Positions 1-63,940 are shown, counted from the whole stretch's first letter. The stretch is 63,996 bases of DNA, filler included, from Candidatus Hydrogenedentota bacterium (GCA_040752395.1; 13 parts of 13 records of this genome joined end to end with filler, not necessarily neighbours in it), one strand, 5' to 3'. Made by a program: numbers and translations. The notes: generated from the letters alone by a model not told the origin.

Positions 1-189
1 GCCCGGAGCCTGCTGAAAAGTCTTGAGTCTTGAGTCCTGTTTTGACTCACGACTTGCGACTCACGACTCTTTTTATATCATCTTTAGTTTTTCATACTTT
101 GTGTAGAGCACAAGAACGCAATAACCCAATAACCCAATAACGCAAGAACGCAATAGTGTAGAGCGTAAACCTCGTTCATGTTGACTCCT
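1..189 (-). repeat. Mosaic intergenic repeat (modules A-B-C-D, start of E) downstream of dxr
   Basis: Reverse complement closely matches 4847-5030 and 46851-46975. Confidence 0.9.
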
Positions 190-3544: not shown

Positions 3545-3952
3545 CCTTTTGTTGCTTCGCTCCATTGCAAATTGCAAATATTAAATTGCAAAATGTTTCT
3601 TCCCATCACTTTACAATCTCCAATCTTTACCCCGTTAGATAAGTCAAAATTACATCTAATCATAATTAGATACCACCAGGTATCTAAGGTGGTGAAATTT
3701 GCAATTCGACATGCGCGGCGAGTCGACTCAGTCTACTACGGGTCTTGTGCCCCTCACTACTTCGAAAAACTTCGCAACTCTAATAATTCGGGGTACAGAC
3801 TACAGGCTACGGACTACAGCCGGCTGGAGACAAAAGCCCGGAGCCTGCTGAAAAGTCTTAAGTCTTGAGTCTTGGGTCTCGAGTCCTGTTTTGACTCACG
3901 ACTCTCGACTCCCGACCCCTAACCCCTAACCGACGCCCCCTAATATACCCCA
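3545..3952 (-). repeat. Mosaic intergenic repeat (D-E, G variant, palindromes, TTGCAAT heptamers) upstream of frr
   Basis: 3780-3915 matches 4970-5095 in reverse; palindrome ttagatacc-acca-ggtatctaa at 3666-3687; the contig ends in it. Confidence 0.85.
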
Positions 3953-4052
3953 NNNNNNNNNNNNNNNNNNNNNNNNNNNNNNNNNNNNNNNNNNNNTTAA
4001 TTAATTAANNNNNNNNNNNNNNNNNNNNNNNNNNNNNNNNNNNNNNNNNNNN
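3953..4052. other. Artificial contig linker. Same linker at 8005-8104, 12001-12100, 31019-31118, 34995-35094, 38925-39024, 42852-42951, 46751-46850, 50596-50695, 54368-54467, 58120-58219, 61849-61948
   Basis: Identical 100-nt N-run spacers with a central TTAATTAATTAA six-frame stop. Confidence 0.99.
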
Positions 4053-4837: not shown

Positions 4838-4846
4838 GTTTTTTAG

Positions 4847-5103
4847 AGGAGTACTCATGAGCGCGGTTTGCGCTCTACACTATTGGGTTCTTGGGTTATT
4901 GGGTTATTGCGTTTTTGTGCTCTATACAAAGGATGAAAAACTAAAGATGATATGAAAAGAGTCGTGAGTCGCAAGTCGTGAGTCAAAACAGGACTCGAGA
5001 CTCAAGACTTTTCAGCAGGCTTTGGGCTTTTTGCTTCAGCCGGCTGTAGTCCGTAGCCCGTAGCCCGAATTATTAGAGTTACAGCGTTTTTCGAAGGAGC
5101 TAT
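4847..5103 (+). repeat. Most complete mosaic element (A-B-C-D-E-G) between ruvA and ruvB
   Basis: Starts AGGAG-tactc-ATG-GAGCGC hairpin and ends agagttacagcgtttttcgaAGGAG before the ruvB ATG. Confidence 0.9.
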
Positions 5104-6117
5104 ATGGTTGATAGATTTATTAAACCTACACAAGTAGAAGAAGCTGATATTGAAAATAGTTTAAGACCTAAAACTATTGAAGAATTTATAGGACAGGAGG
5201 AGATAAAATCAAACCTCAGAGTTTTTATTGATGCTACAAAAAAAAGGAACGAACCACTTGATCATGTGCTTATTTATGGGCCACCTGGTCTTGGAAAAAC
5301 CACGCTTGCTTATATTATTGCCTCTGAACTTAATGCTACAATAAAAGGCACCTCTGGTCCTGCGATAGAGAAAAAGGGTGAGTTAACGGGCCTGCTCACT
5401 GATTTAGAAGATAAATCCGTATTCTTTATTGATGAGATACACAGACTTAATCCGATGATTGAAGAGATTTTATATCCTGCGATGGAAGATTTTGAGTTTG
5501 ATATAGTAATTGGTAAAGGGCCTGGTGCAAGAAGCGTGAAAATTACAGTATCACCGTTTACTCTTGTTGGTGCTACCACACGTGCAGGTATGCTGACCTC
5601 GCCTTTACGGGAAAGGTTCGGGATAGTTTTTAAACTGCAATTTTATAATTATGAAGAGATAAAAAAGATTATTTTTCGGTCCGCAAATATACTTGGAGTT
5701 AAAATAGACGAGAAAGGGGCTGATATTATTGCGAGGCGCAGCAGGGGCACCCCACGCGTTGCTAACCGTTTGTTAAGAAGAACAAAGGATTTTGCTGAGA
5801 TACTCGGTGACGGCTCTATAACTGAAAAAATCGCTATTGAAGCAATGAGACGGCTTGATATAGATGAGGAAGGATTGACTTCGGAAATCAGAGAATATCT
5901 TAAAACTATTATTGAAAAATATTCCACCGGCCCAGTAGGATTGAAAACACTTGCTATATCAATCGGTGAGAGTGAGGATACTATTGAGGATATTTATGAA
6001 CCTATTCTTATTCAAAAAGGCTTTATAAAACGAACACCATCAGGTAGAAAAGCTACTGAAATCGCTTGCAAATTTCTCGGTTATAACATAACTAAAGACC
6101 AGACAGATATTTTTTGA
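5104..6117 (+). CDS. ruvB: Holliday junction helicase RuvB
   Basis: LRPK..EFIGQ, GPPGLGKTTLA, FIDEIHRL, GATTRAG, RGTPRVANRLL. Confidence 0.98.
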   Translation: MVDRFIKPTQVEEADIENSLRPKTIEEFIGQEEIKSNLRVFIDATKKRNEPLDHVLIYGPPGLGKTTLAYIIASELNATIKGTSGPAIEKKGELTGLLTDLEDKSVFFIDEIHRLNPMIEEILYPAMEDFEFDIVIGKGPGARSVKITVSPFTLVGATTRAGMLTSPLRERFGIVFKLQFYNYEEIKKIIFRSANILGVKIDEKGADIIARRSRGTPRVANRLLRRTKDFAEILGDGSITEKIAIEAMRRLDIDEEGLTSEIREYLKTIIEKYSTGPVGLKTLAISIGESEDTIEDIYEPILIQKGFIKRTPSGRKATEIACKFLGYNITKDQTDIF

Positions 6118-6266: not shown

Positions 6267-6352
6267 TCAGTTAGAGGTGGTAAAGAAATAAGAAGTGAGA
6301 AGCAAGATTAAGTAACTCCACGAAGAATGAGGGGATAGCAGAGGAAAATTAT

Positions 6353-12535: not shown

Positions 12536-12641
12536 AAGGCACGAAATTAAATTCAAAATTAAAAATTAGAAGACAGGAGACAGACTTCTTGCTTCTACTT
12601 GATATTATTAGAGTTACAACGTTTTTCAGAGGAGGTCTTAT
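12536..12641 (+). repeat. Mosaic element (H, short F, G) ending in GAGGAGG
   Basis: Matches 63842-63940 in reverse and the G module of 25343-25394. Confidence 0.85.
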
Positions 12642-12773
12642 ATGTTTCTTCGAGAAATTAAGTCCAAAGGTAAAACCCATCTTAGTGTTATCGAATCATA
12701 TAAAAAACAAGGTAAAGTTAAGCAAAGATATATTGCTTCTTTTGGCTGTATTGATTATGAACCTGTTGCATAG
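12642..12773 (+). mobile_element. IS1634-like transposase N-terminal fragment (43 aa)
   Basis: MFLREIKSKGKTHLSVIESYKKQGKVKQRYIASFGCID resembles IS1634 transposase N-termini. Confidence 0.5.
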
Positions 12774-14023: not shown

Positions 14024-14300
14024 CTTCTATAAAACTCCTCTGAAAAACGCTGTAACTATAATAATATCAAGTAGAAGCAAGAAGCAAGAAGCAAGAAGCA
14101 AGAAGCAAGATAACGGAAGAAGTGAGAGGTATCAGGACGGGCGACAGGCTACGGGCTACAGCCGGCTGGAGCCAAAAGCCCAAAGCCTGCTGAAAAGTCT
14201 TGAGTCTTGAGTCCTGTTTTGACTCACGACTCTCGACTCTTAACTCCTGACTCTTTACGCCTCCACCCAATCCCCTATAACCTACCCCCTAACTACACCG
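14024..14300 (-). repeat. Mosaic element (D-E-F-G) between tRNA-Ser and the PilZ gene
   Basis: Near-identical in reverse to 50415-50595; (aagcaag)n array; ends cagaGGAG. Confidence 0.9.
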
Positions 14301-14451: not shown

Positions 14452-14506
14452 AAAAGATAAAGTAAAAAGTTAAAAGTAAGAAGTATCAGAAAAAAATTTT
14501 AATCTT

Positions 14507-16179: not shown

Positions 16180-16322
16180 TAGATGCAAGAGGCAAGATAA
16201 CGAAAAAGAAAGATAACGAAAGAAGCAAGATAACGAAAAAAGTAAGAAGTAAGAAGTATCAGAAAAATGCGGAATGCGGAAATCTGTAGTCAGCAGCCAG
16301 AATTTAGAACGCAAAAACGCAA
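16180..16322 (-). repeat. Repeat mosaic (F-type heptamers) downstream of tRNA-Arg
   Basis: ctgatacttcttacttcttac...cgttatcttgcttc matches 25250-25340. Confidence 0.8.
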
Positions 16323-20535: not shown

Positions 20536-20817
20536 ATGAAGTATTATGACTGGGATGATGATAAGAATGAGTTTATTAAGAAAATGCGCGGGGTATCATT
20601 TGAGCAGGTTGAACTAGCTATTGAGTCCGGGAACTTAGTTGATCGATTAAAACATCCAAACACGCAAAAATATCTGAATCAGAAGGTATTTTTAGTTAAG
20701 ATTGAAGATTATATTTATTCAGTGCCTTATGTTGAGGATAATGAAAAAATATTTTTAAAGACAATTATCCCAAACAGTAAAGCAACGAAGAAGTATTTAG
20801 GAGGAAATAAGAAATGA
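20536..20817 (+). CDS. BrnT-like toxin
   Basis: YDWDDDKNE...RGVSFE...HPN..KY..Q...VPYVE..IFLKTIIP. Confidence 0.8.
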   Translation: MKYYDWDDDKNEFIKKMRGVSFEQVELAIESGNLVDRLKHPNTQKYLNQKVFLVKIEDYIYSVPYVEDNEKIFLKTIIPNSKATKKYLGGNKK

Positions 20818-21113
20818 GAAAAACATTTTACATGGATAAAGAGGAGATAGAACTGGCTAGATCGCTTGAGAACGAAGAATGGGTTTCTGATCTGACCAAG
20901 AGCGCTAAAAAACAATATAAAGAATATGCTCGCTATAGTTTAAACAAGAAAAAAAGAATCAATATCAGGATAAATGAGCGGGACTTAAAAAAAATTCAAG
21001 CTAAAGCAGTTGAAGAAGGGTTACCGTACCAAACGCTTATATCTATGTTAATTCATAAATATAATGAGGGGAAAATATCTATGATATTATCGAAAAGGGG
21101 ATCTATGGTCTGA
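20814..21113 (+). CDS. BrnA/CopG-like antitoxin
   Basis: KKRINIRI..DL..IQAKA.EEGLPYQTLI; ATGA overlap with the toxin. Confidence 0.8.
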   Translation: MRKTFYMDKEEIELARSLENEEWVSDLTKSAKKQYKEYARYSLNKKKRINIRINERDLKKIQAKAVEEGLPYQTLISMLIHKYNEGKISMILSKRGSMV

Positions 21114-24374: not shown

Positions 24375-24397
24375 AGAAGACAGGAGACAGGAGCGGT

Positions 24398-25228
24398 ATG
24401 AGGATTTTTAAAAGAATCAAAGATTACAGAGACTGGAGAGATAGAATAAAAGGCAAGATTGGTTTTGTTCCAACTATGGGTGCGTTACACCAGGGTCACA
24501 TTTCACTGATTAGAGAAATGAAAAAGGAATGTGATATATCAGTTGTAAGTATTTTTGTAAATCCGCTTCAATTTGGAAAAGGCGAAGATTTTAACAAGTA
24601 TCCACGACCACTAAAAGATGATTTAAAAATTTGTAGAATAGAAAAAGTTGATTGTGTATTTTTGCCTGATGTTAAAGAAATGTATCCACAAGAGGTTAAA
24701 ATAACAATCGATCCAGGTTGGATGGGTGATGTCTTATGTGGTATAGACAGACCAGGCCATTTTGCAGGTGTTCTTACAGTTGTTTTGAAGCTATTTATGA
24801 TTATCAAGCCAGAGATAGCCTATTTTGGGAAAAAAGATTATCAGCAATATGTTTTAATTAAAAGGATGACGAAGGATTTAAATATAGCTATAAAAATTGT
24901 CGGGTGTCCCACCATACGAGAAAAAACCGGGCTCGCATTAAGTTCAAGAAATAAATATCTTAATGAAAATGAGAAAAAAGATGCATTACTTATCTCGAAG
25001 AGTTTATATTATGCCAGAGAGAGATTTAGCGAAGGTATAAACAAAGCACGTCAGTTGCAAGGATTTATTAAAAAAATTATTAATACCGGAGCAAATAATA
25101 AAATTATTTACATTAAGTGTATAGATTTTGAATCGTTACAGGGAAAGAAAGTACTTAGAAGAGGGGATGTTATAGCTATTGCTGTAAGAACTGGTAATAC
25201 AAGATTGATAGATAACATTGAGTTATGA
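24398..25228 (+). CDS. panC: Pantoate--beta-alanine ligase
   Basis: VPTMGALHQGH, SIFVNPLQF, RPGHF, GLALSSRN, RLIDN. Confidence 0.97.
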   Translation: MRIFKRIKDYRDWRDRIKGKIGFVPTMGALHQGHISLIREMKKECDISVVSIFVNPLQFGKGEDFNKYPRPLKDDLKICRIEKVDCVFLPDVKEMYPQEVKITIDPGWMGDVLCGIDRPGHFAGVLTVVLKLFMIIKPEIAYFGKKDYQQYVLIKRMTKDLNIAIKIVGCPTIREKTGLALSSRNKYLNENEKKDALLISKSLYYARERFSEGINKARQLQGFIKKIINTGANNKIIYIKCIDFESLQGKKVLRRGDVIAIAVRTGNTRLIDNIEL

Positions 25229-25249: not shown

Positions 25250-25394
25250 ACCTGATACTTCTCACTTCTTACTTCTTTCGTTATCTTGCTTCTTGCTTCT
25301 TGCTTCTTTCGTTATCTTTCTTTTCCGTTATCTTGCTTCTTGCTTCTACTTGATATTATTATAATTACAATGTTTTTCAGAGGAGGTATACATA
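25250..25394 (+). repeat. Mosaic element (F-G) carrying the RBS of the MEMO1-family gene
   Basis: (tcttgct)n then cttgatattattataattacaatgtttttcaGAGGAGG. Confidence 0.9.
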
Positions 25395-34668: not shown

Positions 34669-34890
34669 AGAAACCTCCTCTGAAAAACGTTGTAACTCTA
34701 ATAATATCAAATAGAAGCAAGAGGCAAGATAACGGAAAAGAAAGATAACGGAAGAAGCAAGAAACAAGAGGCACAGAGGCACAAAGGCACAAAGTATGAA
34801 AAACTAAGGATGATATGTTGGCTTCAGGCTACGGGCTACGGACTACAGTCCGCTGGAGCCCGAAGCTTGCTGAAAAGTCTTGAGTCTTCA
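34669..34890 (-). repeat. Mosaic element (D-E, inverted C, F-G)
   Basis: G module ends GAGGAGG before ATG 34668; module C lies on the opposite strand. Confidence 0.85.
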
Positions 34891-35512: not shown

Positions 35513-35567
35513 TAAATTAGAAGCAAGAAGCAAGATAAAGAAAAAGAAGCAAAAGGAAAGAAAAATT

Positions 35568-36566
35568 ATGATATTGAAAGATTCAAAGATTCAAAGATTC
35601 TCTGATACTTGTTACTTCTCACTTCTTACTTTCTTAATGATACTTCTCACTTCTTACTTCTTACTTCTTACTTACCTTCATGCAGAAAACAAAACCTACA
35701 AAGACCAGATATTTGCTATCGTTAATAATAATGCTATAACCCTATATGAAATTAAAAGTCTTATCGATGAGTATAAAAAGAAAAATCCGCTTATTAAGAG
35801 GGAACAGCTTGATGATATTAAAGAGAGATATTTAAAACGTAAAATAGAGGATTTACTGATCCTTGATGCAGCTAAAGAAGAGGGGTTTGTTGCTTCAACT
35901 GAAGAGATTAATTTTTATGTTGATGAGAGATTAAATGAATTAAAAAAGAGTTTCAAAACAGAGGAAGATTTCAAGAAAGCATTAGCTAAAGAAAATCTCA
36001 CAGAAGCTGAACTGAGAAAAAAATTAGGTAAAGATATGGTGAATGAGATCTTAAGAAAGAAGATTATTAATAAAGAGGTGGTCGCAAAAATAATTATCAA
36101 AGATGAAGATGTTGATAATTATTATAAATGGGTAAACAATGAGGTTACTCTGAGAAATATTTTTGTTCCCCAGAGGACTATAGCCGAGGACATTCTTAAT
36201 AAAATAAGTTCAGGTGAAGAGTTTGCAAAACTTGTTAAAGAGTTTTCACAATCACCCGATGTGGAAAGCGGCGGGCTGATGAAGAAAGTTAAGATTAAGG
36301 ATTTAAATCCTTATTTGAGGCAGGCTATTATTGATTTAAAAGAAGGAGATTATAGTAGCATTATTGAAAGCGAGAACGGATATCATATAATTAGAGTTGA
36401 GGGTATAGAAAAATCAGGTGAACTCCCTTCACTTGATGAAGAAGCAAAGAAAAATATAAGAAACCTGATTTTTCAAGACAGGCTTGCTAAAGAACTCGAA
36501 ACGTGGATAAAATCCCTTTTTGATGATGCCTTTATAGAAATACGTGATTATTTGTTAAATGAGTAA
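35568..36566 (+). CDS. surA: SurA-like periplasmic chaperone/parvulin PPIase (start likely ATG 35568)
   Basis: DQIFAIVNNNAIT, F..L.KEFS..P...SGG, S.IIES.NGYHIIRV; surA-pdxA-rsmA synteny. Confidence 0.8.
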   Translation: MILKDSKIQRFSDTCYFSLLTFLMILLTSYFLLLTYLHAENKTYKDQIFAIVNNNAITLYEIKSLIDEYKKKNPLIKREQLDDIKERYLKRKIEDLLILDAAKEEGFVASTEEINFYVDERLNELKKSFKTEEDFKKALAKENLTEAELRKKLGKDMVNEILRKKIINKEVVAKIIIKDEDVDNYYKWVNNEVTLRNIFVPQRTIAEDILNKISSGEEFAKLVKEFSQSPDVESGGLMKKVKIKDLNPYLRQAIIDLKEGDYSSIIESENGYHIIRVEGIEKSGELPSLDEEAKKNIRNLIFQDRLAKELETWIKSLFDDAFIEIRDYLLNE

Positions 36567-36639
36567 ATGAAGAGATGATATGAAAAGAGTCGTGAGTCAA
36601 AACAGGACTCGAGACTCAAGACTTTTCATAGGAGACATT

Positions 36640-37017
36640 ATGAAAGAGGCATTAAGGTATCTGGATAATGCAAAACAGATATTAAAAACCGTCAAGATTG
36701 AGAGTAATATTTATACTGATAAAAAACCTGTTAGAGAGGCGTTTGCTACAGCATATCTTGCTATCCTTGAAGCGATTAATGAATACTTGATAACTAAAAA
36801 AGGATTTACAGAAAAAGAATTACCAAGATCGGTTGATGTATACCGTGAAGTACTGAAAAAATATATTTCAGTGCATGATGGAAAACTAATGCGAGAGTTT
36901 AATAACCTGTATGATGCACTTCATATAGCTGGCTATTATCGTGGTTTAATATATGAGGTAAGTGCAGTGAAAGACTATTTCAAAGCTGCAAAACATTTTA
37001 TTGAACGAATAAATTAG
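36640..37017 (+). CDS. HEPN-like (DUF5618-type) protein inserted between surA and pdxA; preceded by C-D repeat modules at 36570-36635
   Basis: EALRYLDNAK..L...YTDKKPV..A...AYLAILEA...YDALHIAGYYRG. Confidence 0.65.
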   Translation: MKEALRYLDNAKQILKTVKIESNIYTDKKPVREAFATAYLAILEAINEYLITKKGFTEKELPRSVDVYREVLKKYISVHDGKLMREFNNLYDALHIAGYYRGLIYEVSAVKDYFKAAKHFIERIN

Positions 37018-38809: not shown

Positions 38810-39024
38810 AATAAACAATAAATACCGATAATTTAATAAGTATCCCCATCAGTTTAAAGACCATCACTACTTTGTGCCTTTGTACCTTTGTGCCTTAAAT
38901 TGGTGGATTACATTTAATAATAGTNNNNNNNNNNNNNNNNNNNNNNNNNNNNNNNNNNNNNNNNNNNNTTAATTAATTAANNNNNNNNNNNNNNNNNNNN
39001 NNNNNNNNNNNNNNNNNNNNNNNN

Positions 39025-46516: not shown

Positions 46517-46750
46517 GTTCGCTCCTCTGAAAAACATTCTAACTCTAATAATATCAAGTAGAAGCAAGAAGCAAGATAAACAAACATCTGGTTTTTCATA
46601 CGTTGTGTAGAGCGCAAACCGCGCTCAGGACTACTCCTTTAAAAGCCAGAAGCAAGAAACTCATCCGGCTTAATCAGTTGTCAGTTTCGAGTCTTTAGTC
46701 ATCAGTCTTTCTTGACTCACGACTTATTGACTGATTTTCTGACTTACAAG
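46517..46750 (-). repeat. Mosaic element (A, partial C, F-G) carrying the ilvB RBS
   Basis: AGGAG-tagtc-ctgagcgcggtttgcgctctacac...cttgatattattagagttagaatgtttttcaGAGGAG. Confidence 0.85.
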
Positions 46751-46850: not shown

Positions 46851-47062
46851 ATTGGGTTATTGGGTTATTGCGTTATTGCGTTCTACACAAAGTATGAAAA
46901 ACTAAAGATGATATGAAAAGAGTCGTGAGTCAAAACAGGACTCGAGACTCAAGACTTTTCAGCAGGCTCCGGGCTTTTGGCTCCAGCCGGCTGTAGTCCG
47001 TAGCCTGTAGCCTGTCCTGATACCTCTCACTTCTTACTTCTTACTTCTTCAGAGGAGGGGTT
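46851..47062 (+). repeat. Mosaic element (B-C-D-E-F, cagaGGAG end)
   Basis: Near-identical to 4890-5065 and 50380-50550. Confidence 0.9.
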
Positions 47063-49269: not shown

Positions 49270-49585
49270 TTGCTATATAAAATAAGAGGCACAAAGTAGT
49301 GATGGTCTTTAGAACCGTGGTAGGCAAATAAATTTGCAATTTTGCAATTTGCAATCTCCAATTTACAATTCGAAATTCAAAAGAATTTCGAACATCTTGG
49401 TTCTTGCTTCTTGTTTCGAGAACTTTTGACCTTTTAACTTTTTATGGACAGTAAGCAGTCAGATATCAATAATATTGATAAATAACTTTAAAAACTAAAG
49501 GTCCGACCCTATTGTAGAAAAAAAGATACTTGATTTTTTTATATAAGTAGTTAATATATTAAAAATTATATGACGGGGTTTTTAT

Positions 49586-49819
49586 ATGACGACTATTGAA
49601 ATAATAAACCAACTAAGAAGACTCAATTCTGATGAGCTAATAAATATTATTGAAAATGCAGTTGCGGTGCTTGAATCAAAGATTCAATCATCAAATAAGA
49701 CAAAAAATAGGTCAAAAAAACAATTATTCAAAGCTGCAAAAAAATTGGTTTCAGAATATAAAAACAATAGTGAACTGACAGCATTTACTTTGATTGATGG
49801 TGACGAATTTTATGCGTAG
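49586..49819 (+). CDS. Putative antitoxin of the MazF-family toxin
   Basis: AAKKLVSEYKNNSELTAFT..DG.EF; overlaps the toxin start. Confidence 0.65.
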   Translation: MTTIEIINQLRRLNSDELINIIENAVAVLESKIQSSNKTKNRSKKQLFKAAKKLVSEYKNNSELTAFTLIDGDEFYA

Positions 49820-50153
49820 GGGTGAAGTATGGATGGTCAATTTAAATCCTACGATTGGTGCTGAAATAAAGAAAACCCGGCCGGCAGTGATTGTAAACGA
49901 TGATGCGGTTGGGATACTTCCACTTAAAATTATTGTACCTATTACAGAATGGAAATCTTCGTTCAAGGATGTGCCATGGATGGTGCGAATAGAACCATCA
50001 ATAACAAATGGTTTACGTAAAGTTTCGATCGCCGATGCGTTTCAGGTAAGATCAATATCACAGTTAAGACTTATTAATAAAATTGGTGTTTTATCAGCGA
50101 GTACTATGAACCTAATTACCAAAGCACTTGCTCTTGTCTTAGGTATGGAATAA
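49812..50153 (+). CDS. PemK/MazF-family toxin
   Basis: RGEVWMVNLNPTIGAEIKKTRPAVIV, NGL.K.S.AD.FQVRSIS..RL. Confidence 0.9.
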   Translation: MRRGEVWMVNLNPTIGAEIKKTRPAVIVNDDAVGILPLKIIVPITEWKSSFKDVPWMVRIEPSITNGLRKVSIADAFQVRSISQLRLINKIGVLSASTMNLITKALALVLGME

Positions 50154-50179: not shown

Positions 50180-50595
50180 TCTTTCCTTTCCGTTATCCTG
50201 CTTCTAAATAAGGGCAAATGAATTTGTATTCCATTAGTCTTCAGTAGGATTCCGTAATCTTGCCTCTTGCTTCTAAAGTATAAGTTCTACTGCACCAATA
50301 ACTGAGGCTTTACATGAATTTGCAATTTGCACTTTACAATTTGCAATTTATAATTTAAAATAGACCGAAGTGACAGAGAGGCACAAAGGATGAAAAACTA
50401 AAGATGATATGAAAAGAGTCGTGAGTCAAAACAGGACTCGAGACTCAAGACTCAAGACTTTTCAGCAGGCTTTTGGGCTTTTGGCTCCAGCCGGCTGTAG
50501 GCCGTAACCTGTAGCCCGTAGCCCGTCCTGATACCTCTCACTTCTTCCGTTATCTTGCTTCTTGCCTCTTGTTTCTACTTGATATTATTATAGTT
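50180..50595 (+). repeat. Long mosaic element (F and TTGCAAT arrays, C-D-E-F-G), cut by the contig end
   Basis: 50380-50595 matches 4925-5065 and 14055-14240. Confidence 0.9.
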
Positions 50596-61948: not shown

Positions 61949-62029
61949 CATGCTTTGTGTAGAGCGCAAAAACGCAATAACCCAATAACCCAATAGAGTA
62001 GAGCGCAAACGCGCTCATGTTGACTCCTT
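61949..62029 (-). repeat. Mosaic element start (A-B), cut by the contig end
   Basis: AGGAG-tcaac-ATG-agcgcgtttgcgctctac-(ttattggg)n. Confidence 0.85.
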
Positions 62030-63839: not shown

Positions 63840-63940
63840 TGTTCTCCTCTGAAAAACGCTGTAACTCTTCTGTCTCCTGTCTCCTATCTTCTAATTTTTA
63901 ATTTTTAATTTTGAATTTTAAATTTAACTTTGTGCCTTTG
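63840..63940 (-). repeat. Mosaic element (H-G) carrying the DUF2905 RBS
   Basis: (aaaatta)n-(acaggag)n-agagttacagcgtttttcaGAGGAG-aaca-ATG. Confidence 0.85.

Follow-up and report, generated by a model that had tools for sequence, protein, structure and literature searches.

A mosaic intergenic repeat that ends at the Shine-Dalgarno sequence of unrelated genes

The ruvA-ruvB spacer and its mosaic repeat

The spacer between ruvA and ruvB (4838-5103) in the stretch of DNA analysed here holds the fullest copy of a mosaic repeat, whose last module, G, ends in a Shine-Dalgarno (SD) sequence directly ahead of the ruvB start codon and occupies the same place ahead of seven other genes. The whole stretch, called the window, is a pseudo-molecule of 63,996 nt with a GC content of 33.7%, in which 13 contig pieces are joined by 100-nt linkers (44 N, TTAATTAATTAA, 44 N) at 3953-4052 and at 11 further sites; genes on either side of a linker are not true neighbours. 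Six contig ends fall inside the repeats studied here, and several copies are truncated by them.

The ruvA-ruvB copy lies on the plus strand and is made up, in order, of a G-type tail and modules A, B, C, D, E and G. The G-type tail (4838-4851) comes directly after the ruvA stop codon and runs into module A (4847-4880), which consists of an AGGAG, a 5-nt spacer, an ATG at 4857 and a GC hairpin at 4859-4875. This ATG opens a hydrophobic mini open reading frame (mini-ORF) of 32 codons (4857-4955), which runs through the 8-nt array of module B (4881-4920, tandem units of the TTGGGTTA type) and ends about 150 nt before ruvB. Module C (4921-4958) is a unique linker that includes AAAGGATGAAAAACTAAAGATGATATG. 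Two hairpins follow: module D (hairpin 1, 4957-5012), built of inverted heptamer arrays of the types GAGTCNN and GACTCNN, and module E (hairpin 2, 5013-5066), in which (GGGCTTT)n is followed by the palindrome CAGCCGGCTG and by (GTAGCCC)n. Module G (5067-5099) is a U-rich tract followed by an AGGAG, 4 nt before the ruvB ATG at 5104. The copy does sit between two AGGAG motifs, as the original prediction had said, and these are at 4847-4851 and 5095-5099. Its two ends form a direct repeat (4838-4851 against 5086-5099, 11 of 14 positions identical) and do not pair with each other; no terminal inverted repeats were found in this copy, only the internal hairpins.

Other copies carry a further module, F, between E and G, which consists of CU-rich arrays, for example (CTTCTTG)n, and an ACCTCT motif. 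Copies follow the order A-B-C-D-E-F-G and differ by internal deletions, with tandem arrays of 7-8-nt units in modules B, D, E and F. Together the copies make a nested set with a fixed 3' end, running from A to G (ruvA-ruvB), from D to G (PilZ and PhnD) and from F to G (Memo), and then through a short F plus G (the copy at 12549 and the proximal part of the ilvB copy) down to 24 nt of G (DUF2905) and 10 nt of G (STAS). Module C is inverted in the PhnD mosaic. The repeat is directed towards genes: 20 of the 23 repeat blocks, as delimited by our own reading, are co-oriented with the flanking gene (p = 2.4e-4), the exceptions being 6283-6328, 35518-35562 and 49287-49311.

Some of the modules resemble one another. 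The core of G (GTTACAGCGTTTTT, 5078-5091) is similar to the end of the 8-nt array (GTTATTGCGTTTTT, 4903-4916), and the tail of hairpin D (TTTTCAGCAGG) is similar to the tail of G (TTTTCAGAGGAG); on these likenesses, the modules may be derived from one another. Two mosaics have telomere-like G-rich arrays (TTAGGGG / TAGGGGN) as their far 5' part, at 3890-3952 and 14250-14300. CU-rich arrays of the same family also lie directly upstream of a tRNA-Ser gene (14454-14494) and downstream of a tRNA-Arg gene (16180-16320), so the arrays are not confined to the leaders of protein genes.

Module G, module A and the start codons that follow them

Copies of module G are alike up to GTTTTTCAGAGGAG and then pass into gene-specific spacers and a start codon, as had been claimed from the sequence. 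The distance from G to the start, which had been proposed as a check, is 4-11 nt in all eight intact window copies and in one copy from outside the window, on a contig called G001:C128, which is described below. The starts named in the original prediction were correct for all eight genes: ruvB (5104, ATG), a 43-codon ORF (12642), PilZ (14023, minus strand), Memo/AmrB (25395), a PhnD-like gene (34668, minus), ilvB (46516, minus, GTG), STAS (47063) and DUF2905 (63839, minus). The start codons are credible because Pfam domains begin near the N-termini, at residues 4-43, in the products that have them (RuvB, PilZ, Memo/AmrB, Phosphonate-bd, a TPP enzyme domain for ilvB, STAS and DUF2905).

Five of the copies outside ruvA-ruvB have a long module G. 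These are at 12595-12634 (plus), 7 nt before the ATG of the 43-codon ORF; at 14035-14074 (minus), 11 nt before the PilZ ATG, with D, E and F upstream; at 25346-25385 (plus), 9 nt before the Memo/AmrB ATG, with only F arrays upstream; at 34675-34714 (minus), 6 nt before the PhnD-like ATG, with the mosaic that contains the inverted module C upstream; and at 46522-46561 (minus), 5 nt before the ilvB GTG. The short tail that had been noticed ahead of STAS was seen as CTTCTTCAGAGGAG, fused to a (CTTCTTA)n array at 47044-47057 (plus), 5 nt before the ATG, and the 24-nt 3' part of G at 63844-63867 (minus) lies 4 nt before the DUF2905 ATG. The sole G copy away from a start (n = 1) is degenerate: it ends in GTTTTTCGAAGTAG at 3757-3787 (minus), about 180 nt from the frr start, and has lost its SD by a change of GGAG to GTAG. 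One more copy, the 5' part of G at 50576-50595 (plus), is truncated by a contig end, and its relation to a start cannot be assessed. Ten of 10 G copies are co-oriented with the flanking gene, and many of the genes served by G are the downstream member of a co-directional pair (ruvA-ruvB, panC-memo).

Three PF01609 (DDE transposase) proteins, 527-539 aa long, match the 43-codon ORF at 12642 in their N-terminal part with 68-77% identity, two of them at 74-77%. The ORF had been called an IS1634-like fragment; NCBIfam gave no match to it, and a tblastn search of plasmids gave nothing either. Relatives of this transposase in the genomes of the phylum of G001 are only 26-41% identical.

The recurrence of G is far above chance. 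Within the window, the 30-mer of G has 5 matches at up to 3 mismatches (0.00 expected), and its 14-mer tail has 13 matches at up to 2 mismatches (0.59 expected). These 13 are the eight G tails before starts, the tail before module A at 4838-4851, and four look-alikes (43345, 49028, 52750 and 56238) that are isolated and have no module context. Nine copies, eight from the window and the one from G001:C128, were aligned on GGAG. Over the last 31 columns up to GGAG, 6-9 of the 9 copies agree, except in one column (4/9), and directly past GGAG the agreement falls to 3-6 of 9. The spacers between SD and start are 4, 7, 11, 9, 6, 5, 5, 4 and 9 nt long and unrelated in sequence. The junction between repeat and unique DNA is GGAG(G) in every intact G copy, precisely at the SD.

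Adjacency to starts was also measured against the other AGGAG motifs, of which the window has 103 in total and 85 outside the repeats. Counting a start only if it opens an ORF of at least 60 codons and lies 3-13 nt after AGGAG, 14 of the 85 motifs outside repeats have one, and so do 7 of the 8 intact G tails (p = 8e-5). When the 43-codon ORF is counted as well, the comparison is 8/8 against 14/85 (Fisher p = 3e-6).

Module A has four copies, which are alike from an invariant AGGAGT onwards and unrelated in sequence ahead of it. The original prediction had placed the start of A at AGGAG, which holds in all four copies, and had given coordinates that were off by one in two of them; the motifs are at 4847-4851 and, on the minus strand, at 185-189, 46634-46638 and 62024-62028. 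The module at 156-189 (minus) lies 43 nt after the dxr stop and the one at 61996-62028 (minus) has the same layout with ATG; both belong to elements that run off a contig end. In the fourth, at 46605-46638 (minus) in the ilvB copy, CTG stands for ATG. An ATG thus comes 5 nt after the AGGAG in three of the four copies; a 6-bp GC hairpin comes next in the module. The hydrophobic ORF that A opens through the 8-nt array is 10-32 codons long, and its frame differs between copies: one extra 8-nt unit shifts the frame, and any frame of the array is hydrophobic. A conserved small protein or type I toxin was considered for the mini-ORF and is unlikely because the frame is not conserved; the ilvB copy, moreover, has CTG and 10 codons. 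A leader-peptide attenuator for ilvB was rejected for the same CTG and 10 codons, and a terminator was not found.

Different module pieces join A at GGAG. Ahead of A in the ruvA-ruvB copy is GTTTTTTAGAGGAG, which agrees with the G consensus at 13 of 14 positions (the copy's own 3' tail agrees at 12 of 14); the ilvB copy has a CTTGCTTCT array and then the G-like tail GGCTTTTAAAGGAG (10/14) in this position, and the copy at 156-189 has the head of module F. With an ATG 5 nt on in three of the four copies and a G-type tail before it, the upstream AGGAG gives the impression of the G cassette used a second time, where it would open the mini-ORF, and not of a target-site duplication. As a general rule, the claim that the elements are bounded by SD sequences on both sides did not hold up: A stands at the 5' edge in 1 of the 8 G-bearing copies. 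Both ends are visible in two elements only, ruvA-ruvB and ilvB, and in the ilvB copy A is internal, with further repeat DNA upstream. Five G-bearing copies (12549, PilZ, Memo, PhnD and DUF2905) have neither A nor an AGGAG at their 5' limit, and the STAS copy is truncated by a contig start.

How the modules may have spread

We lean, with modest confidence, towards a reading in which the AGGAG is a working SD within a gene-directed, 3'-anchored mosaic repeat, module G is a portable initiation cassette, and the modules spread by recombination. Module G would have been fused 4-11 nt before the starts of unrelated genes in copies that keep their 3' end and vary upstream, and the AGGAG of module A would be a second instance of the cassette. 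The anatomy, the bias in orientation and the closeness to starts are seen directly in the sequence. The modules might have moved from one intergenic spacer to another by recombination, gene conversion or template switching, with joints at short shared sequences, namely the SD itself and the 7-8-nt arrays; selection may then have acted to retain an SD at the start codons it serves and not elsewhere. All recipients have this one sequence, the SD, in common. Spread of this type fits the mosaic makeup, the nested 5' extents, the one inverted module and the lack of inverted ends, and it fits better than cut-and-paste transposition, given that the termini are direct and not inverted repeats and that an internal module is inverted. 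The original prediction had offered a portable translation-initiation region as one of its alternatives, and the fixed place of the SD in the module agrees with it; for the SD-carrying end module, this alternative has good support.

Several points weigh against this account. Its evidence base is 64 kb of one fragmented assembly with six contig ends within the repeats. Recombination is what we infer from the arrangement of modules, and neither a donor-recipient pair nor an empty site was seen. An imperfect 14-nt direct repeat flanks the ruvA-ruvB copy, as an insertion with duplication leaves. Module G stands before the 43-codon transposase fragment, a place where there is no obvious reason for selection on expression to retain it; its presence there hints at targeting of SD-plus-start contexts. 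Finally, the predicted accessibility of the SD is low (0.09 or less) in the copies with F arrays, so by these models G would not simply be a strong ribosome-binding site.

A mobile element that targets the SD would explain some of these points. A unit running from A to G would insert at AGGAG and duplicate or regenerate the SD, so that the downstream gene keeps its binding site, and recombination between the two AGGAG could later excise the unit precisely. The direct repeats at the ends of the ruvA-ruvB copy are what such an element might leave, and if 4852-5099 is taken out, ruvA and ruvB are left 18 nt apart, with a single SD 4 nt before the ATG. All four copies of A begin exactly at AGGAG, and G is also found before a dead transposase fragment. 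However, the two-ended form occurs in one of the eight G-bearing copies, while five have no A or 5' AGGAG, and terminal inverted repeats are lacking. No transposase or recombinase domain was found among the 53 window proteins scanned, the only trace being the fragment at 12642. The left "duplicate" resembles the G consensus more than the right does and comes with a U-tract, as would a piece of a module and not a random target, and the mosaic includes an inverted internal module. Such an element therefore seems unlikely to us. The more specific idea of a mobile intercistronic cassette with the SD as its attachment site, entering at AGGAG and rebuilding AGGAG at its own 3' end, we find more doubtful still. 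If it were true, the cassette would be removable without a scar by recombination between AGGAG motifs, and it would be a new, operon-safe class of mobile DNA that targets ribosome-binding sites.

The repeat could also be a shared regulatory leader, in which the mini-ORF, the two hairpins, the CU-rich, anti-SD-like arrays and the SD provide a common post-transcriptional control, for example by an RNA-binding protein, by temperature or by ribosome loading; this would be compatible with spread by recombination. The orientation of 20 of the 23 blocks towards the downstream gene speaks for it. Consensus scans of four regions found no sigma-70-like promoter inside the elements, though the promoter type of the host may differ, and no intrinsic terminator, so the elements are probably read through as parts of messenger RNAs. 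Predicted RNA folds show two recurring hairpins, and the predicted probability that the SD is unpaired is 0.02-0.09 in the 5 copies that have CU-rich F arrays, compared with 0.35-0.90 in 5 genes with a non-repeat AGGAG. The fold z-scores are modest, however (-2.18 and -2.14), and the masking of the SD in the F-array copies is no different from that in shuffled upstream controls of the same composition. The hairpin arms do not covary in unit number, the genes served are functionally unrelated, and the same arrays are found before tRNA genes as well. A search of Rfam gave only tRNAs at the gathering score and nothing credible at a relaxed threshold, where one chance-level match (22.5 bits against 44) was absent from a second copy. 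We consider a shared leader improbable. Much less probable is the reading, disfavoured by the sequence, that each gene merely has its own SD and the repeat ends upstream of it, with the likeness at GGAG being that of a universal ribosome-binding site. All genes with an SD share GGAG, so any alignment would run through it, and GGAG is followed by a further G in 5 of the 9 copies, as selection on the SD alone would give. Yet the distance from the module core to GGAG does not vary at all (0 nt, 9/9), while that from SD to start ranges over 4-11 nt, and few of the other genes in the window have more than a weak SD. Because its position inside the module is fixed, the SD travels with the module and does not belong to each gene separately. 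That a fragmented draft wrongly joined repeats to gene starts is hardly conceivable. The 13 linker-joined contigs and the six contig ends in repeats invite the suspicion, but five copies (ruvA-ruvB, tRNA-Ser-PilZ, panC-Memo, SurA-DUF5618 and panB-panC) are bracketed by unique genes on both sides inside one contig, and the independent assembly of G001:C128 has the same module order, with G likewise adjoining a start.

Relatives, comparable repeats and other features of the window

Genome contigs were scanned with a 21-nt pattern of G, and at least one true outside copy was found among the matches listed. It lies on G001:C128, a 2.2-kb contig of the metagenome-assembled genome G001, and has the order A-C-E-G with an ATG 9 nt after GGAG. 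The same scan gave at least one further match without any other module among the matches listed, where about one would be expected by chance by our estimate. In metagenome contigs the pattern gave three matches, none with similarity to the upstream modules. Within G001 there are one true G tail and one look-alike, and C128 alone matched the element. The RuvB of G001 is only 58% identical to that of the window and is not encoded beside ruvA; this low identity makes it improbable that C128 shares vertical descent with the rest of G001.

The core of hairpin 1 (module D) was found in 0 of 41 genomes, G001 and 40 relatives. Seven of 25 genomes of the G001 phylum match the query, six of them through heptamer arrays alone (GAGTCNN, CTTGCTT) and G001 through C128, and the unique modules were found nowhere but in C128 among these 25. 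RuvA in this phylum is 29-39% identical to the window RuvA, so its kinship with the window is not shown. At 4 of 23 loci of the phylum, ruvB lies directly downstream of ruvA; the element is absent from those four spacers, which are roughly 0-130 nt long, in genomes too distant to serve as empty sites. The closest RuvA and RuvB among 5.8 billion proteins are 43% and 68% identical, and for this reason no informative empty site is available: the lineage has no close sequenced relative in the databases searched, and the case rests on one fragmented assembly. Long heptamer arrays of the same units, for example (GAGTCAG)n facing (GACTCAA)n, were seen in other uncultured genomes, at L029 (G022:C22), L036 (G022:C137), L028 (G023:C44), L021 (G001:C2) and L071 (G015:C13), and some of them appear in frame inside ORFs. 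Upstream of ruvB in G001 there is a hairpin made of (GAAATTG)n arrays.

The nearest known systems in logic are, by analogy, the REP2 repeat of Neisseria and the similar Borrelia plasmid IR, which PMC3184786 describes as lying directly upstream of unrelated ORFs and carrying a ribosome-binding site. Like them, the window element is an intergenic repeat with a ribosome-binding site before unrelated ORFs (8 of 8 copies of G, and C128), and it likewise has two internal stem-loops and no terminal inverted repeats. REP2 is said there to be a 120-150 bp unit that includes a promoter and the ATG itself (PMC3184786). The window repeat differs in that it stops at GGAG, with the spacer and start being gene-specific and only module A bringing its own ATG, and in that no sigma-70-like promoter was found in the four scanned regions. 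It is also a variable mosaic of 7-8-nt arrays and unique linkers, and the two are likened by description only. A repeat that brings a ribosome-binding site to many unrelated genes is a rare but already known arrangement. The mechanism, if worked out, would tell how a genome can rewrite its translation signals wholesale, even inside operons, and might yield a natural portable initiation cassette.

Heptamer arrays directed at start codons are described for other bacteria. In marine Beggiatoaceae, as reported in PMC4679880, arrays of TAACTGA stop 1 to a few nt short of the start and in most cases stand in place of an SD, which only about 10% of the repeat-bearing spacers have; in Nostoc, arrays of heptamers run mostly toward start codons (bioRxiv 10.1101/2022.06.06.494920). 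A role in translation is suspected in these accounts and unproven (PMC4679880; bioRxiv 10.1101/2022.06.06.494920). The window shares with them the tandem 7-nt units in spacers, pointing toward the starts of unrelated genes (20 of 23 blocks). It differs in combining many units with unique modules, the last of which supplies a canonical AGGAG. An array that abuts the start without an SD is not the pattern of the window, where G with its AGGAG intervenes; the exception is panC, whose SD lies inside an array.

The BOX element of Streptococcus pneumoniae (boxA-(boxB)n-boxC), according to PMC3049150, has ends like inverted repeats, is enriched between convergent or co-transcribed genes, is co-transcribed with its neighbours and can create small ORFs, which lack a good SD. 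Both it and the window element are modular composites with variable tandem internal units and no transposase encoded within; the ends of the window element are instead direct AGGAG repeats that do not pair, and its 3' end is tied to start codons. The mycobacterial interspersed repetitive unit (MIRU) lies inside operons, has small ORFs whose ends overlap the adjacent stop and start codons, and is flanked at filled sites by short direct repeats, as summarised in PMC3184786. Location between genes within operons, small ORFs and short flanking direct repeats are common to both, but the mini-ORF at 4857-4955 overlaps neither ruvA nor ruvB. Miniature inverted-repeat transposable elements (MITEs) are defined by terminal inverted repeats, whereas the termini here are direct repeats; the one candidate for a target duplication of the MITE kind is the 11/14 direct repeat of one window copy. 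Repetitive extragenic palindromic (REP) sequences and bacterial interspersed mosaic elements (BIMEs) are short GC-rich palindromic units with an associated Y1 transposase (RAYT). Palindromes are found in the window (the hairpin of module A and CAGCCGGCTG), and no Y1 transposase is among the 53 window proteins.

Repeat DNA other than module G also supplies an SD to genes of the window. Ahead of DUF5618, modules C and D (36573-36634, plus) have a tail remodelled to TTTTCATAGGAG, which puts an SD 5 nt before the ATG at 36640, where the Pfam match begins. The C and D modules are open at 36580-36639 and in frame with DUF5618, which would allow a 20-codon N-terminal extension; the Pfam match and the SD favour ATG 36640. 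Ahead of panC, the array (GACAGGA)2 (24375-24393, plus) gives an AGGAG 4 nt before the ATG at 24398. Altogether 9 gene starts with an AGGAG take it from repeats and about 8 real starts, by our reading of the 14 ORF matches, have one outside them, so that repeat DNA accounts for roughly half of the strong (AGGAG) ribosome-binding sites that gene starts of the window have.

At SurA, part of the repeat may have been taken into the coding sequence. The likely start is ATG 35639, from which an array of the (CTTCTTA)n type (35639-35690) would encode the signal-peptide-like MILLTSYFLLLTYLHA; the long ORF from 35424 overlaps a tRNA-Val gene, hence that start is wrong. A small module containing CACAAAGTAGTGATGGTCTTTA occurs twice, in opposite orientations, at 38855-38895 after ksgA and at 49287-49311 after an ORF of 634 aa. 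Two contig ends (42725-42851 and 50696-50822) are 127-nt reverse complements of each other, because of which these two contigs probably abut in the genome. Toxin-antitoxin genes were also seen: a BrnT-like and CopG-like pair lies between metH-related genes at 20536-21113, and a MazF/PemK-like gene at 49794-50153 is followed by a long repeat mosaic.

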